A stretch of 64,000 bases of DNA. Source: an uncultured Candidatus Binatia bacterium. Lineage in GTDB: Bacteria > Desulfobacterota > Binatia > UBA9968 > CAXXLF01. Below, one piece after another: positions 22,201-28,200 of the stretch (position 1 is its first letter; the number at the start of each line of letters is the position of its first letter). The stretch lies in contig OZ244621.1 of assembly GCA_965218425.1 (NCBI GenBank), positions 1,664,001 to 1,728,000 on the forward strand, read 5' to 3'. A program made the position numbers.

Positions 22201-25200
22201 AGGCAATCCTGACTCCGGCCCCTGGAGATGTGTCTCAATGGGTAGTTCATCACGTTCCCTCTCCGAGAACCTCGACGACCTCAGCGATCACCTGCAGCGG
22301 CCCCTCGTCCGTGCCGGTTAGGATGATCGGCTCGAAGTCCGCGTTGACAGGGTTGAGTATGATTCTCGTATGGTGCCATGAGTCTCCGTCGCCGGCCTTC
22401 TCGCTTTTGTAACGCTTGACGGTGTAGCGCTCGCCGCTTTCCGGATCGGCGGCGTCGCGCATCTGCACGAGCACCGTCTTGCCCTGGCGCGTGCCCTCGA
22501 CGGGCGCCGCGAAGAGGCAGTACGCGCCGTCGGGGATGGCCGGCTCCATGGACTTGCCGACCACCTGGGCGACGAACATGCCACGACGGAGGCGGCGCTT
22601 GGTCTCGACTGCCGCCCATTCATAGTCATCGTCATCGATGTACTGGAGGTCGCTGAATGCGCCCGCGGCGGCCTTGAGAGGGACGAGCGGCACGCAGGTC
22701 ACGTAGCGCTCCTCCGGCTGGGGCTCGACGATACGCAGGCGTGCCGGAAGCGCGCTGGGTCCCGCGTGCTCCTCTCCTCCGCGAGTGTCGTCGCTTCTCA
22801 GCCGCCGATACGCCTGCGACGCCATCCATGTCGTCACGAGCTTCTGGAAGGGCGCGTCGTTCATGAACCGGACGAAGATCTCCTCGTTCTGATCCATGCG
22901 CTCGACGAACAGATTCTCCAACAGGCTCTTGAACACCAGCTCGAACTTGTCGCCCGGATTGACCGCGGCCGCCTGTCGCAGACCGTCGTCGGCCATGGCC
23001 GCTTCGACAATCTGATCGAAGAAGAGCTGATCGGCCTGGTTGAAGTCCGTGCCGAAGCGTTCGTTGACGATGTCGATGAGCTGGGAGAGCGGCACCGACT
23101 GCTCGTTCGCAGCGCCGCTACCGACCTCGGTGGGCCCATCCAGGGCGCCCGCAACGCCGTCCCGGAGCGAGATAGAGCCTTCGCTGATCTTCTGCAGGCG
23201 GTAGTACTCGATCCGCACCTCGTCATCGAACTGGTACGCCGGGCCACTCTTGCGACGTGGCAGCTTCGCCACGAGATGGCGGAGGAACACGTACAGTTGC
23301 TCGAGATCCGAGTCCTGGTACGGAATCACCTGGCTCAGGAACCCATACAGATTCAAAAACGCCTGCACCTTGCCGCGCCAGTCTTCCGCCCCCTCCTCGT
23401 TGTCGTCCCGGCGGACCGTGAATCGCGACACCGCCGGATCGAGAGCGGCGTTCATGGTCCGGTGATCCAGCGCACTCTGCCGACGCTTCGGCTTGAAGTA
23501 GACGTCTCTGAACCGCTCAACCTCCTCATCGAGGTAGATTCCCGAGGCATCCAGCTCGCCCTTGATCGCGTACATGCGGGCGGGGTCGACTTCCTCGCCC
23601 ATCTCGGAACCTTCGTAGTAGGTCTTGAAGGCCTCGCGAATCTCCTCCCTGTCGTTCACGAAGTCGAGAACGAATGTGTCTTCCTTGAGCGGGTGAATGC
23701 GGTTCAGCCGGGAGAGGGTCTGAACGGCCTGAATGCCCGCGAGCCGCTTGTCCACGAACATCGTGTGCAGCAGCGGTTGATCGAACCCGGTCTGGTACTT
23801 CTCCGCCACGAGCAGGACCTGATACTCCTGCGTCGCGAACTTCTCAGGCAGCTCTTTCTCGGAGATGCCCTGGTTCATGCCCGGTTCGGTATAGGTGACG
23901 CCTGCGAGCTTGTCGTCCACCACCGTGCCGGAAAACGCCACCAGCGACTTGATGGCGTAGCCCTTCTTCCGGATATAGCGATCGAAGCTCTGCTTGTAGC
24001 GGACCGCTTCGAGGCGCGACCCCGTCACCACCATCGCCTTGGCCCGGCCGCCGATCTTGTGCCGCGTGACGGCCTGGAAGTGCTCGACCATCACCTCGGT
24101 CTTCTGCGCGATATTGTGCGGATGCAGCCTCATGAAACGCGCCAGCGCCTGCGCGGCCTTCTTGCGCTTTACGTTGGGATCGTCCTCGCACGCCTTGAGC
24201 AGCCTGAAGTACGTCGCGTACGTGGTGTATTGATTCAGCACGTCGAGGATGAACTCTTCTTCGATCGCTTGCCGCATGGTGTAGCGGTGCGCCGGCTGCC
24301 CATCGCGGCCGAACACGGCGAGCGTCTTGTGCTTGGGCGTGGCGGTGAAGGCGAAGAAGCTCAGGTTCGCCTGCTTGCCGCGCTTGGCCATGCTGCGGAA
24401 GAGCTCTTCCATGTCTTCCCGGCCTTCCTCGGACGCGCGCTTCTTGGCTTCGTCCCGAAGCCCCTCTCCGCCCAGCACTTCCTTGAGATCGGTCGCCGTC
24501 TCGCCGCTCTGAGAGCTGTGCGCCTCGTCGACGACGACGGCGCAACGCCGGGTGGCGAGCGTGCCCGTGCCTGTCGTCCCGCGTTCCTCGGCCATCTTGA
24601 GCAAGTGGCGCGAGACGAAAGGGAATTTCTGCAGTGTTGTGATGATCACCGGCACCGCATTCTCGAGCGCTTCGGCGAGTTGTCGCGAGCTCTCGTCGAT
24701 CCGCTGCACGACGCCCCGCTTGTGCTCGAACTGGTAGATCGTGTCCTGGAGCTGCTGGTCGAGCACGACGCGATCCGTGACCACGATAACGCTGTCGAAA
24801 ACGCGCTGGTTGGCGGCATCGTGCAGGGATGCGAGCCGATGCGTCAGCCAACCTATGGTGTTGCTCTTGCCGCTGCCTGCCGAATGCTCGACGAGGTAGT
24901 TGTGCCCCACGCCCTCGCTGCGGGCGGCGTCCACCAGCATGCGCACCGCCTGGAGTTGGTGGTAGCGGGGGAAGATCATGGCCTCCGTCTTGACCTTGCG
25001 GCCCCGGTCGTCGCGCTTCTCGTCCATCTGCAAGTGGATGAAGCGGGCGAGGAGGTCGAGCAGGCTGTCACGCCGCAGCACCTCTTCCCATAGGTATGCC
25101 GTGCGGTAGGTCCGGCCCGCCGGATCAGGCGGGTTCCCGGCCGCTCCGTCGCAGCCTTTGTCGAACGGAAGAAAATGTGTCGCCGCGCCGGCGAGCCGCG

Positions 25201-28200
25201 TGGTCATGAGCACGGACTCGGTATCCACGGCAAAGTGCACCAACGTGCGCCGCTTGAACTCGAAGATCGGCTCGCGCGGGTCGCGGTCCTGCTTGTACTG
25301 TCGGCGTGCATCCTCAACGGTCTGTCCGGTGAGCGGGTTCTTCAGTTCCAGCGTAGCCACGGGAATGCCGTTCAGGCTCAGCGTGACATCCAGCGACTTC
25401 TCGGAGCGTGGCGAGAAGCGGAGCTGGCGGGTAAGCCCCAGACGGTTGGCGGCGTAGCGGGATTCAAGCTCCGGATTCAACTCGTGCGCCGCCTTGAAGT
25501 ACGCCGCATGGAGCGTTCGCCCGTAACACTTGAACCCGTGTCGCAGCGTCGCAAGCGCGCCGTTGCCGTCCATCCACTTGCACAGATCGCCGAGGATCTG
25601 CTCTCCGGTCTTGTCGCCGTGCAGCGACTCTAGCTTGGCCCATTCCTTCGGTTGGGTCTCGCGGATGAAGGCGAGGACCGTCTCGGGAAAGATCGCGCGC
25701 TCGCGGTCGAAGCCCTCGCGCGCGACCGTCACATACCCGTTCTCAAGCAGGTGCGCTTCGATGACGGTCTCGAAGGCGGTTTCGGAGTGACGACCTTGGC
25801 TCATGCCCCCATCCTTGCGAGCTTTTGGCCCAACAGCCAGACCGCGACCTGAACATATGGAGCGAGTTCCCCGACTCCTGCGTCACGTCTGGTTCGCTCG
25901 CGTTCGAGCCGTTCACGAGGCACACGGCCGTGATTCCGTTTCTTCTGGTTCTCCCACCATTCGAGTACCGCGTCGTAGACGCCCTTCCGATTGTTCTTCA
26001 GTTTGGCGAGGTTCAGATTCAACACGTTGTTGAGCTGGCCATCGAAACCTGCCTCATCCGCGTGGATCGAGCCATCCGGCTCGTACCGGATGCGGGTCTC
26101 GATGCGATGCGCCTGGTTGGCGGGATTCCACTCAAGGTCCCTGTCCCCCTTCCTCGTGTCGCAGTGCTGGAGGTGAGCCGGTTGTCCATGCCCGCCGAGA
26201 CAGGCGCCGAGGAGATTCCGGTAGTTGAGTTGTTCGTCTTGGTGGTCTTTTTGGTCCCTCCAGTGCTCGATCTTCATGGACGCTCGCTCGGGGCGGATGC
26301 GACCCATGCAGTAGCAGCACAGCCCGTGCTGCTCGATAACAAGGGCGTGTCGAAGATCGTTCTTCGGCACGTAGTTGTCATAATCGCAGTGCGGTGTCTG
26401 GCGATGCGACCTGAGGCTTGCTGGTTCGCGACCCTTGGTGATCGCCCTCATTCCTCGCCCTCCATAAAATCGAGGAGGGTTCGGATTCGGGTGACTTCGG
26501 GATCATTCTCGCCAAGCCGGTCGACGAGTTGTGCCAGCAATTCACGTGCGCTCTCGTACCGCTGATTACTAACTTCGTGGGACACCTGCGAGAGTAGCAC
26601 GTCGACTTTCTGAGTGCGGGGGTCTGCACCCATGATTTCTTCCAGGACCCGGCTCGAGTCCACCCCGAAGGAATGGGGAGGCGAATAAACCTCGCCTTTC
26701 GAGATGATCTGGATGTGATCGTGCTCGACCTCGCCAATGACTTGCGGCGAATGGGTCGTGGCGATGAACTGGCAGCGCGGGAACGTCGTCGTGAGTTTGT
26801 GAACGATCTGCCGCTGCCAAGACGGATGGAGGTGCAAGTCCAGTTCATCGATTAGGACTACAGCCTCGCCCTCCTGCAGCGGATCGTCAAGATTCGGATT
26901 TGCCTGGGACAACCGCTTTGCAAGGTCGAGGACCATGCCAAGTACGCCTCGCTCTCCATCAGACAGCTGGCTCACATCGAGCGTGGTGCCATGGCTGTCA
27001 ATCAAGAGGCTAGAGGCATCTTCATTGTGTCGGATGTTCTGACAACTCGGGAGGAATCGGGTTGCTGAGACCTGGAGGACTTCTAGATGCCGAGCGGCAA
27101 CTGGTAACTCGGCAGCCAAGGTGGATTGCGTGCGCATCCACTCGGCGAACTGCCTAACCTGCCATGGTCTTGAAACTAGCGCTTCGGCATATGCAGCTGC
27201 TCTGCCACCCGAGGTCTTGCTTTTTGGAGCCTTCGCCCCAGCGACGACGGAGCGATTCGTCGCGAAAAAGACGCAGTTTGGGGCCATTTTGAGCGCCCGT
27301 GCCGTTCGGGAGAGTTCGCCCTTCCCAGGGAACAGCGTATCGGAATCCGAGACTCCGTGCGAATCTTCAAGGTCCCTTAGCAGATTTCGCGCACGATCCC
27401 GTAGACGTTCTGACTCCAAAATTTCCCTGCGAAGACGTTCGATGTTCTCTTCATCATCGGCTGCGAATTTCGTTTTCCACTGCCGTCGAGTCAAACGGAA
27501 TTCCTTGTCGCCTAAATTGGCGTCCAGCGAAACGTCCAAAAAAGGGAATCCGGCCCGTATGTCGTCGACGACAAAAGACATCGCCCTTGACCGGCTATTA
27601 GAAATCGAAGGAAGGACCCGTGACATGCAAATGCGAATCGCGTCCAAAATTGTGCTCTTGCCGACACCGTTGACTCCCACAATTAAGTTCAGTCCAGTTT
27701 TAAACGAGAACTCCGCAAACTCTATGGCGCGCAAGTTCGCGAGATGGAGACGCGTTACTCTCATGCCGCTTCCCCAATGTCGATCTGGCCAGTTACAGCA
27801 GCAGCGATAAGGGCTGTTCGGCGCTCTTTGAGAAGGGTTATAGTTCGATCCGTAGCCTCGACTAGGCGATCGAGGCGAGACGTCCTTTCACGTAGACTTG
27901 CCACGATAGCCTTCTGTTCGGAGGGTGGGGGAAGTGGGACCTCCATGTCGTTTAGCGTCTCAACAGTTAGTTGATTGATCGTCGACGTGGAAAAGGCACC
28001 CGCTTGATAGTCAAAGAGCGGAGAGTTGAAGATGTAGAAGAGATACTCATTGTGAGGACTCCGAAAGACAGTCATGAATGCACCAAACGTCAAGCCAGTA
28101 GCAGCTTGAACTATCAGAGCGTTCTTGCCAATCAATGTACGGCTACCGCTTCGCGAGCAGATAAGTATGTCGCCCAGTCTGGTTCTGAGATTCTCGGGAA

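Follow-up and report, generated by a model that had tools for sequence, protein, structure and literature searches.

Why should the restriction subunit of a Type I restriction-modification system end in a domain of the kind with which LexA cuts itself? The question is posed by an hsdR gene (22250..25804, minus strand) in the window, a 64,000-nucleotide stretch of contig OZ244621.1 from an uncultured Candidatus Binatia bacterium. The initial annotation had described an uninterrupted 1184-residue HsdR with a terminal S24 peptidase domain, encoded in an operon hsdM-hsdS-ptuA-ptuB-hsdR, and had proposed that the domain is a protease-free device that cuts the tail off the nuclease upon DNA damage or, conversely, a damage-triggered activator.

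An intact HsdR with a peptidase tail closes the operon

Gene coordinates, translation and domain searches bear out both gene and operon. The hsdR reading frame starts with ATG and has zero internal stops; PADLOC recognises its product as a Type I restriction subunit (REase_I, E 1e-33), and Pfam finds an HSDR_N nuclease domain at residues 118-206 (25187..25453, minus strand; PF04313, E 6.8e-13; coordinates checked), a SWI2/SNF2-type motor domain at 282-525 (24230..24961, minus strand; PF18766, E 9.3e-25), ResIII at 279-442 and a T1R_D3-like domain at 650-708. We located the nuclease motif D139...E153-x-K155, a GSGKS Walker A motif at 310-314 and DEAH at 426-429. Peptidase_S24 lies where originally placed, at residues 1044-1177, matching profile positions 5-116 of 116; its E-value is 6.9e-6 (2.9e-6 originally), and its 26.2 bits are only 2.9 above the cut-off of 23.3.

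All five genes lie on the minus strand and overlap by 4 nt, hsdR being the last: hsdM methyltransferase (29050..31038, 662 aa; Pfam N6_Mtase and HsdM_N, PADLOC MTase_I E 2.6e-260), hsdS specificity subunit (27761..29053, 430 aa; Methylase_S in two stretches, PADLOC Specificity_I E 5.8e-99), a ptuA-like ABC/SMC-type ATPase gene (26448..27764, 438 aa; Pfam AAA_21/AAA_15, PADLOC PtuA E 9e-120) and a ptuB-like HNH endonuclease gene (25801..26451, 216 aa; PADLOC PtuB E 2.9e-71, with an NCBIfam PtuB score of 89.2 bits that falls below the cut-off of 150). A search upstream of hsdM found no LexA-box-like site.

The tail resembles the self-cleavage domain of LexA

Residues 1020-1184 (about 165 residues; 22253..22747, minus strand) form a module of the LexA/cI/UmuD type by Pfam (PF00717, MEROPS S24), AlphaFold2, Foldseek and VIA-align. 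An AlphaFold2 model based on a 93-row alignment reached pLDDT 93.0 and pTM 0.87, which resolves the failure of an earlier model (pLDDT 32.5). Its top structural match in VIA-align was RecA-bound lambda cI (8gmu_A; Z 15.4, rmsd 2.1, 124 of 131 residues aligned), followed by the cleavable form of LexA (1jhe_A, Z 14.9) and RecA-bound LexA (8gms, Z 14.4; 8trg, 14.2; 8s7g, 14.0), whereas non-cleavable LexA forms gave Z 12.2, UmuD' 10.5 and signal peptidases 5-7; LexA and lambda cI were also the top Foldseek matches. The module thus shares the fold of the LexA C-terminal domain (Z 14-15), although identity in structural alignments is only about 21-27%. As the initial annotation had cautioned, single-sequence phmmer retrieved neither LexA nor UmuD from PDB sequences, but a profile search does find them, in 16 of its 20 hits at E<=1, the strongest at E 0.003; BLASTP against this genome's own LexA gave a weak match (E 0.01).

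The three motifs singled out originally, VPLVPLKAAA|GAF, GKSM and TVKRY, are all in place. The first (VPLVPLKAAAGAF) holds the predicted scissile bond Ala1047|Gly1048 (22661..22666, minus strand), which aligns with A88|G89 of this genome's LexA; the second holds the predicted nucleophile Ser1085 (22550..22552, minus strand), matched to the LexA serine in the PDB profile hit; the third holds the predicted general base Lys1130 (22415..22417, minus strand), matched to the LexA TVK. Counted over 104 complete modules, S1085 is kept in 104, K1130, A1046 and A1047 in 102 each and G1048 in 100. As in LexA, the Ser-Lys dyad sits in G-x-S-M and T-V-K contexts and the Ala|Gly bond on a strand-loop ahead of the serine, at a distance of 38 residues as against 34 in this genome's LexA; P3-P1 are Ala-Ala-Ala here and Val-Ala-Ala in LexA.

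Unlike LexA, the module has no DNA-binding domain, its N-terminal partner being a 1019-residue nuclease-motor, and it carries two family-specific insertions, one of them the eight-residue RDAADPES (1116-1123), together with near-invariant residues of its own (W1063 in 103, C1096 and D1120 in 100 each, W1143 in 86 and H1145 in 92 of 104 modules). Its fold, dyad, Ala-Gly site and closed 'cleavable' predicted conformation support taking the tail as a genuine LexA-type self-cleavage module, complete and with its catalytic residues in place.

The module is dispensable and promiscuous

For comparison we took the 120 proteins closest to the HsdR body, which match it at 89-97% identity across residues 1-1000. 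Seventy carry the module; the other 50, 1009-1051 aa long, end at a Gly/Glu/Pro-rich junction (approximately residues 999-1019; 22748..22810, minus strand), where the relatives' contigs diverge, at 22763, and run into an in-frame stop. Two tail-less proteins (P0165 and P0177) retain a vestige of the module's first residues. The module is therefore an accessory, dispensable for the HsdR body. Among the 70 tail-bearing relatives it is 58-96% identical to the one here (median 81%), the 73-96% given originally applying to the best 120 of that search; G.SM occurs in all 70, and the Lys motif in 68 by pattern, the other two having TIKRY.

A search with the module returned 1862 cluster representatives at E<=1e-3. 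The initial annotation had placed it on HsdR and on Type ISP enzymes, and it is indeed widespread on HsdR proteins, of two families, and on Type_ISP_C methylase proteins; the latter have the methylase and Type_ISP_C domains but, with the exception of L052, no helicase motor at Pfam E<=1e-5, and NCBIfam at E<=1e-10 named none of the six tested. The module is nevertheless far more promiscuous, as it also terminates giant DEAD/MZB helicases and PLD, HNH, McrBC-, LlaJI-, MmeI- and Schlafen-type proteins. A recognisable partner domain was found in 41 of 75 hits of at least 250 aa: a nuclease, helicase or methylase type in 39 and HTH in two. Across 80 genome loci, almost every partner is a restriction or defence enzyme that targets DNA, and partners and operon neighbours both differ widely; the module is terminal in 74 and always C-terminal to the nuclease domain. 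In three HindI-like HsdRs (L055, L069 and L081) it is an insertion that separates the Q-motif region from Walker A while leaving all motifs intact, so the mechanism there cannot be the shedding of a C-terminal appendage; a cut is predicted still to give the nuclease fragment a new ...AAA-COOH end. Three small proteins with the subfamily signature (P0051, P0073 and L065; 49-60% identical to the tail) have an XRE-type HTH as fusion partner, the arrangement of ordinary cleavable repressors, and so show the module used in the classical way elsewhere; unlike HsdR, these are small repressors, and a minority (2 of 41 hits with a recognisable partner, 1 of 80 loci).

A candidate off-switch for restriction

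The occurrence of the module on HsdR and many other defence nucleases suggests a protein-level switch-off when the cell's own DNA is damaged; we found no published description in the literature searched. We propose, with a confidence just short of even, that the HsdR tail is a portable accessory autoprotease of LexA type acting as an off-switch, or 'fuse', for the attached nuclease. The proposal builds on what the analysis showed: a LexA-type fold, an intact Ser1085/Lys1130 dyad and the Ala1047|Gly1048 site, together with the presence of the module on many unrelated DNA-targeting defence enzymes and its dispensability for the HsdR body. The module would cut its own chain at A1047|G1048, stimulated by RecA-ssDNA filaments formed on breaks in the cell's own DNA, which might stem, for example, from restriction of the host's own DNA where repair or recombination has left sites without methylation. 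The whole nuclease-motor body would then have ...LKAAA-COOH as its C-terminus, resembling the C-terminal degron that autocleaved LexA exposes, and housekeeping ClpXP could clear the enzyme, making this a built-in form of the restriction alleviation that EcoKI obtains through ClpXP without such a module. By analogy with LexA, the simplest effect common to all architectures would be to expose ...AAA-COOH as the new end of the fragment with the nuclease. ClpXP-dependent C-degrons are reported to adjoin the autocleavage sites of LexA and IrvR (PMC5742171), and EcoKI restriction alleviation is described as proteolysis of HsdR by ClpXP (PMC11109961). Since the device would feed into this housekeeping protease and not replace it, 'protease-free' in the initial annotation is probably too strong, whereas its complete LexA-type module, common to other restriction enzymes, stands.

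The genome encodes RecA with the L2-loop Met-Phe, ClpX and a canonical LexA. LexA residues reported to receive RecA F203 (V79, V82, F111, L113, V146 and V153; bioRxiv 10.1101/2023.10.30.564768) map approximately, two of the six across the RDAADPES insertion, to V1041, A1045, F1077, A1079, L1112 and Y1127, which are hydrophobic and conserved (F1077 in 103, A1079 in 93, L1112 in 100 and Y1127, as Y, F or L, in 102 of 104 modules). These residues may be conserved simply as the core of the fold, and the conserved Ala-Ala-Ala may mirror nothing more than which substrates the protease itself prefers. RDAADPES lies beside the patch (D151 region) through which LexA contacts RecA according to the same preprint, and the co-protease could therefore differ. 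In the common C-terminal arrangement a cut removes just the module, so that inactivation rests on the degron or on a dimer idea, both hypothetical. Type IV-like partners such as McrBC and LlaJI do not face the problem of unmethylated self sites, and strict restriction alleviation therefore cannot cover every partner.

Other readings of the module

The module might never cleave here and serve, as the initial annotation had considered, as a mere dimerisation or tethering domain for enzymes whose two nucleases must meet. LexA, cI and UmuD do dimerise through their C-terminal domains, and Type I, Type ISP and PLD nucleases require two catalytic units for cutting; such a domain, however, would have no need of the Ser, Lys and Ala-Gly site found in 100-104 of 104 modules, and the catalytic motifs persist in 68-70 of the 70 close relatives while the remaining module drifts (58-96% identity). 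Bodies 89-97% identical lack the module, which disfavours a needed dimerisation domain, and three HsdRs hold it inside the motor domain; we consider this reading very unlikely. The intact dyad could instead act in trans on PtuA/PtuB, HsdM or a phage protein, as LexA and UmuD can at low efficiency, but the module has a conserved Ala-Gly site of its own, on a strand-loop modelled as in cleavable LexA, and such differing partners and neighbours that no common trans substrate is apparent, making this scarcely credible.

Self-cleavage could also activate, in the style of UmuD to UmuD', if RecA* or a phage-derived signal removed a restraining tail and unleashed restriction or a toxic nuclease (abortive infection). 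S24 cleavage of UmuD is activating, phage replication and recombination intermediates trigger many defence systems, sequence and fold make the module competent for cleavage, and a cut in the insertion variants would release the nuclease domain from the motor. Yet a Type I nuclease severed from its motor should lose translocation-coupled cleavage, methylation already gives restriction enzymes their discrimination so that an activator is unneeded, and the 50 tail-less relatives among 120, common as they are, would be constitutively unleashed; activation thus seems decidedly unlikely. A cleavage that is real and inactivating but triggered otherwise than by RecA*, whether by a phage-borne or plasmid-borne protein, by the enzyme itself stalling or colliding during translocation, or by another stress signal, is unlikely too. 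It would fit the RecA-independent cleavage documented for the LexA-like IrvR (PMC7101444), the reported recognition of EcoKI by ClpXP only in its DNA-bound, translocation-competent state (PMC12707154), and the module's own invariant residues and two insertions, one beside the surface by which LexA touches RecA; against it, RecA-bound LexA and cI are the best structural matches, the F203-pocket positions are hydrophobic and conserved, and every partner acts on DNA, and for such enzymes DNA damage is the natural feedback signal.

Relation to known systems

Lambda cI, the best single structural match, undergoes RecA*-stimulated self-cleavage, as does UmuD; cutting inactivates the repressor in the one and activates a polymerase subunit in the other, whereas the cargo here is a restriction nuclease. 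EcoKI faces the same biological problem and possibly reaches the same end point, the elimination of HsdR once self DNA is endangered (PMC11109961, PMC12707154); its HsdR lacks an S24 module, and ClpXP directly recognises the complex as it translocates, whereas here a built-in autoprotease would make the degron. In Pseudomonas aeruginosa, iREN is likewise described as a post-translational, proteolytic shut-off of HsdR against self-targeting, but in that account the triggers are heat and hypomethylation, and separate Lon-like proteases act in place of an HsdR domain (bioRxiv 10.1101/2024.10.21.619520).

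The restriction subunit and its operon

HsdR is encoded by a single open frame of 1184 codons (22250..25804, minus strand), in which Pfam places HSDR_N at residues 118-206, SWI2_SNF2/ResIII at 279-525, T1R_D3-like at 650-708 and Peptidase_S24 at 1044-1177 (PF00717, E 6.9e-6, profile positions 5-116 of 116); this bears out the claim of the initial annotation that an S24 tail (residues 1020-1184) ends an uninterrupted HsdR reading frame. The body (residues 1-1019) has the make-up of a Type I HsdR, an N-terminal PD-(D/E)xK nuclease joined to an SF2 motor, the nuclease, Walker A and DEAH motifs all being intact (D139...E153-x-K155; GSGKS at 310-314; DEAH at 426-429), and PADLOC recognises it as REase_I (E 1e-33). 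The NCBIfam model TIGR00348 (hsdR) matches residues 119-731 (E 2.3e-56) with a score of 191.6 bits, below its cut-off of 284.55, indicating that this HsdR belongs to a divergent family.

Five genes, with hsdR at the end of the order hsdM-hsdS-ptuA-ptuB-hsdR, share the minus strand and overlap by 4 nt at each step. Upstream in the same operon lie hsdM (29050..31038, minus strand; PADLOC MTase_I, E 2.6e-260) and hsdS (27761..29053, minus strand; PADLOC Specificity_I, E 5.8e-99); PADLOC offered no family for the S24 tail.

Nested between hsdS and hsdR (25801-27764, minus strand) is a Septu-like pair, a PtuA-like ATPase gene (26448..27764, minus strand; PADLOC PtuA, E 9e-120) followed, as in Septu, by a PtuB-like HNH nuclease gene (25801..26451, minus strand; PADLOC PtuB, E 2.9e-71). 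Both proteins score below the cut-offs of the NCBIfam retron-Ec78 PtuA and PtuB models, and we therefore call the pair Septu-like and not of the retron type. The five-gene order recurs in ten related loci from several phyla (L004, L005, L013, L020, L027, L038, L044, L051, L056 and L066), and a PtuA match alone in eight further loci (phmmer E<=1e-5, with the proteins of the window as query); other loci have a different cargo, or none, between hsdS and hsdR.

The tail resembles the cleavage-ready form of LexA

Judged by its sequence alone, the likeness of the tail to LexA is weak: the PF00717 match exceeds the gathering cut-off by a small margin (26.2 bits against 23.3; 31 bits in the whole-genome scan), BLASTP against the host genome's LexA gives E 0.01, and a single-sequence phmmer search of PDB sequences did not retrieve LexA, reproducing an earlier failure of the same search. 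Once relatives are included, the case for a LexA-type module is strong. With residues 1020-1184 as the query, phmmer matched 1862 of 1.84 billion cluster representatives at E<=1e-3; of these, 1086 reached E<=1e-10 and 171 reached E<=1e-30. A profile built from 93 of them gave 20 PDB matches at E<=1, of which 16 were LexA or UmuD, headed by Mycobacterium tuberculosis LexA (E 0.003), with the Ser and Lys motifs in register. With a 93-row alignment, AlphaFold2 predicted the tail at a mean pLDDT of 93.0 and a pTM of 0.87, with 140 of the 165 residues at pLDDT >=90, which supersedes the pLDDT of 32.5 obtained without an alignment and entered as a caveat in the initial annotation.

Foldseek with this model returned 25 matches at E<=0.001, comprising LexA, lambda cI, related chains and UmuD, and the fold is that of the LexA C-terminal domain (VIA-align Z 12-15.4 over 118-127 residues). 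The highest-ranking structure was lambda cI on the RecA filament (8gmu_A; Z 15.4, rmsd 2.1, 124 of 131 residues), followed by the 'cleavable' LexA quadruple mutant (1jhe_A; Z 14.9), RecA-bound LexA (8gms, 8trg and 8s7g; Z 14.0-14.4), non-cleavable LexA forms (1jhf and 1jhc; Z 12.2), UmuD' (Z about 10.5) and type I signal peptidases (Z 5-7). This ranking indicates that the model includes the cleavage-site strand and loop, and that it is most like the closed, cleavage-ready state.

Repressors of the LexA/cI type have an N-terminal winged-helix/HTH domain, whereas residues 1-1019 of HsdR hold HSDR_N, SWI2_SNF2 and T1R_D3-like; as Pfam found no HTH there, we rejected the possibility that HsdR is such a repressor, the cleavage module alone being held in common. 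PF00717 recognises two S24 domains in the 4.46-Mb genome, that of LexA and that of the HsdR tail, and revealed no UmuD-like gene.

Predicted catalytic residues are conserved

We aligned the tail with the 103 whole-module matches among the 150 listed (104 rows). The predicted nucleophile, Ser1085 in GKSM, is present in all 104 modules, and the predicted general base, Lys1130 in TVKRY, in 102; they align with the Ser and Lys of LexA. N-terminal to this catalytic core lies the predicted scissile bond A1047|G1048, with Ala1047 kept in 102 of 104 modules, Gly1048 in 100 and the preceding Ala1046 in 102; the P3 position, 1045, is Ala, Val or Ile in 101. The counterparts in the host genome's LexA are A88|G89, S122 and K159. 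The family also has near-invariant residues of its own, namely W1063 and F1077 (103 each), C1096 and D1120 (100 each), R1106 (97), H1145 (92) and W1143 (86), and differs from LexA by two insertions, at about residues 1116-1123 and 1137-1145.

The tail is an accessory of the enzyme

From a search with HsdR residues 1-1000 against 5.8 billion proteins, we took the best 120 of 8000 scored candidates (P0157-P0276), which are 89-97% identical to the body. The S24 module is found in 70 of them (1172-1194 aa); the other 50 (1009-1051 aa) lack it and end inside the Gly/Glu/Pro-rich junction (around residues 999-1019), two of them (P0165 and P0177) still preserving a little of the start of the module. 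Every one of the 70 tails has G.SM, 68 have the Lys motif by pattern (TIKRY in the remaining two) and 68 have Ala-Ala-Gly (Ser at P1' in the remaining two). This split, together with the retention of the motifs, argues that the tail is an accessory, which the enzyme does not need structurally and which comes and goes between very close relatives; the pattern of conservation indicates purifying selection for catalysis. Contigs of relatives assembled from sequencing runs diverge from the gene at 22763 into an in-frame stop (two contigs in one set, X18, and three in another, X19), in agreement with tail-less forms of 1014 aa. We also considered whether the fusion could be an assembly or frameshift artefact, and rejected this because 70 independent close relatives share the continuous open frame.

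The tails of these 70 relatives are 58-96% identical to that of HsdR (median 81%) and thus more variable than the body. The body, by contrast, keeps its 89-97% identity over 1000 residues in 120 or more cluster representatives drawn from numerous assemblies, which suggests a very successful mobile restriction-modification cassette, with faster evolution or recombination in the tail than in the body. The sequencing-run matches come from relatives and not from the source organism, since the share of sampled words present in a run never exceeded 0.27. Contigs of three RNA libraries (two studies), 85-99% alike, span all 30 bins and include part of the tail (X19 record 17, 22413-22639), and no listed piece spans the junction; they too are relatives' sequences, possibly from DNA carry-over, and have no bearing on expression here.

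The module is shared by many DNA-targeting enzymes

To describe the partners of the module we scanned with Pfam the 75 of the 150 listed matches that are >=250 aa long, many of the other 75 being fragments. Type_ISP_C with Eco57I/N6_Mtase was the most frequent recognisable partner (13 of 75), followed by HsdR domains (6), MZB/DEAD helicases (4), the Schlafen group-3 helicase and HNH_4 (3 each), PLDc_2, MmeI-like/N6_Mtase, Schlafen AlbA_2 and XRE-type HTH (2 each), and LlaJI, RE_endonuc, McrBC and ResIII+MerR (1 each); 34 had S24 alone or no recognisable partner. Because Pfam, at E<=1e-5, shows methylase and specificity domains in the Type_ISP_C partners with no helicase domain, and none of the six compared with NCBIfam received a name, we term them Type ISP/IIG-like.

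Of 599 pattern matches in species-representative genomes, no fewer than 500 code for a relative of the module. The 80 best loci are spread over many phyla, nearly all in metagenome-assembled genomes, and comprise 44 HsdRs of the present family (frameshifts split 4 of them and contig ends truncate several), 13 Type_ISP_C proteins (L052 being 2347 aa long with PLD and SNF2 domains), 7 HindI-like HsdRs, 7 DEAD/MZB helicases of about 1975 aa, 1 HTH repressor type, 1 odd host frame (L073) and 7 with an unresolved host frame. Within the host's own phylum the module occurs in 13 of 401 sampled genomes (12 of 340 of high quality), scattered over families. On viral contigs, 89 of 547 pattern matches were confirmed. 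Identity is only 26-38% in the best 80, as would be seen with common phage repressors; these are relatives of repressor type, and the subfamily of the HsdR tail was not found on the phage contigs.

A tree of the module (quick method; 65 rows and 163 columns; 15 of the 80 loci, unlabelled or with a short module, are omitted) requires 11 changes of host type at best, against a minimum of 4 and a shuffled mean of 26. Only 3 of its 62 branches are well supported, and these force at most one origin per host; swapping of the module between hosts is no more than suggested.

The module usually stands at the extreme end of its host protein: no more than 23 residues follow in 93 of 103 complete matches, and no more than 19 in 74 of the 80 loci. 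In three HindI-like HsdRs from Thermoanaerobaculia and Longimicrobiales metagenome-assembled genomes (L055:6002-9736, L069:5975-9745 and L081:6191-9742) it instead interrupts the motor domain, where it separates the Q-motif region from Walker A and keeps Ala-Ala-Ala-Gly, G-x-S-M and T-V-K-R-Y intact; L055 passes the NCBIfam hsdR cut-off at 575 bits. In every architecture in which a nuclease is recognisable, it lies N-terminal to the predicted cut.

Some Type_ISP_C proteins have a conserved extension of about 200 aa after the module (L029:7484-8080, L059:7490-8089 and L067:421-1017; also P0012, P0022 and P0028), of which about 140 aa resemble two similar Arg-rich helical repeats; in L029 and L059 it had no Pfam match at E<=1 other than one at chance level.

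A possible damage-triggered switch

Alignments and structural models together establish a complete, accessory and portable S24 module, predicted to cleave itself, on DNA-targeting defence enzymes. The interpretation in the initial annotation stands as far as a LexA-type module shared among restriction enzymes is concerned; the rest, a RecA*-sensing switch, is a proposal here too. The module would cut its own chain at A1047|G1048, and it is highly improbable that it serves to cleave in trans. That it serves dimerisation only is also quite improbable, as the catalytic residues appear to be under selection. A two-copy homodimer prediction (score 0.01) has no bearing on dimerisation either way.

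RecA* may be the trigger. We count toward this the closeness of the model to RecA-bound LexA and cI, and the host genome encodes a RecA with the L2-loop Met-Phe. The LexA pocket for RecA F203 consists of V79, V82, F111, L113, V146 and V153, as set out in a preprint (bioRxiv 10.1101/2023.10.30.564768); the counterparts in the tail, V1041, A1045, F1077, A1079, L1112 and Y1127, are all hydrophobic and conserved, on a mapping that is approximate, with one extra residue before the cut and two positions across an insertion. Such conservation would be expected anyway if these are core residues. Against the proposed switch, LexA-like proteins independent of RecA exist, according to PMC7101444, the likeness to LexA is marginal at the sequence level, a family-specific insertion adjoins the patch of LexA that touches RecA, and no site resembling an SOS box was found upstream of hsdM. 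A trigger other than RecA seems unlikely to us.

The cut would lead to loss of the enzyme. It would take off the S24 module alone where this is C-terminal, as is common, and in the insertion form the module would remain joined to the motor; all forms would share a new ...Ala-Ala-Ala-COOH end on the nuclease-bearing fragment. The degron of LexA ends in Val-Ala-Ala, resembling the Leu-Ala-Ala of the ssrA tag. LexA and the LexA-like IrvR have buried ClpXP-dependent C-degrons adjoining their autocleavage sites, whose exposure leads to rapid degradation of the N-terminal fragment, as PMC5742171 reports (citing Neher et al. 2003), and by analogy with these two proteins the cut HsdR may expose a degron. 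The host genome encodes ClpX (651.6 bits), and restriction alleviation of EcoKI consists of ClpXP proteolysis of HsdR, as stated in PMC11109961 and PMC12707154. On account of the common ...AAA-COOH end, the LexA and IrvR degrons, ClpX and the EcoKI precedent, we favour, with slightly less than even confidence, a course in which breaks in self DNA would give RecA*, self-cleavage would follow, a degron would be exposed and the nuclease would be removed. Activation of the enzyme by cleavage is in our estimation unlikely.

The Type IV-like partners fall outside 'restriction alleviation' in its strict sense, and a general autoimmunity feedback would cover them. More widely, the module may act across DNA-targeting immune enzymes as an 'autoimmunity fuse' that moves horizontally, in which RecA* on self breaks would lead to cleavage and a ClpX degron; we regard this only as a tentative possibility, well short of even confidence. 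Were it true, one cassette of about 165 residues would give many effectors (of Type I, Type_ISP_C/IIG-like, McrBC-, LlaJI-, PLD-, HNH-, Schlafen- and YprA-helicase type) a direct link to the SOS response at the protein level, independent of LexA-controlled transcription.

It has long been asked how restriction and other nuclease defences spare the cell that carries them once its DNA has been damaged or repaired, or once they have moved into a new host. The safeguards known to us, namely ClpXP for EcoKI, assembly control for EcoR124I and Lon-like proteases in Pseudomonas, are all external to the enzyme; a self-cleaving LexA module inside the nuclease would, if confirmed, be a new modular solution in which immunity is wired to the RecA damage signal. 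The module occurs in numerous phyla and classes of enzyme, natural enzymes with and without the tail, about 90% identical, form pairs for comparison, and a portable damage-triggered off-switch for proteins could serve as a tool. The tail is a known S24 self-cleavage module in what would be a new role: the full-text literature searched (main texts, with few subscription journals) yielded no description of a restriction or defence enzyme that bears a domain of the S24/LexA type. The terms 'LexA' and 'S24' are absent from a 2025 review of restriction-modification biology (PMC12707154) and from the DefensePredictor paper (PMC13092281), as are 'S24', 'LexA', 'peptidase' and 'protease' from a preprint on ARMADA and YprA helicases (PMC12458937).

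Candidate SOS operators and the surrounding genes

Some 50 nt before the lexA start, the perfect palindrome GTTCAA-N3-TTGAAC (L001:1195-1215) forms a candidate LexA operator, of which no copy was found near recA. With up to three mismatches the palindrome has 18 matches in the window against 22.8 expected, none of them upstream of hsdM.

Immediately upstream of hsdM, a low-GC stretch (31495-32156, minus strand) contains a 142-aa frame (31728..32156) with Cys/His-rich motifs near its N terminus and, after a T-run and in a different frame, a 57-aa frame (31495..31668); the two, which have no Pfam match, are probably one gene broken by a frameshift. Adjoining the 3' end of hsdR are a 355-aa frame (20402-21469, plus strand) and a 248-aa frame (21341-22087, minus strand), both outside any Pfam family; as they overlap, at most one may be real. 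Further along lie a gene for an endonuclease/exonuclease/phosphatase-family protein (18261-19718, plus strand), one for a 431-aa ankyrin-repeat protein (16791-18086, plus strand) with near-identical 102-nt repeats, in which an identical 15-mer recurs at 17465, 17567 and 17669, and an IS3-type transposase gene (14970-16049, minus strand; rve, rve_3 and HTH_21). These neighbours give the region the look of an accessory island.
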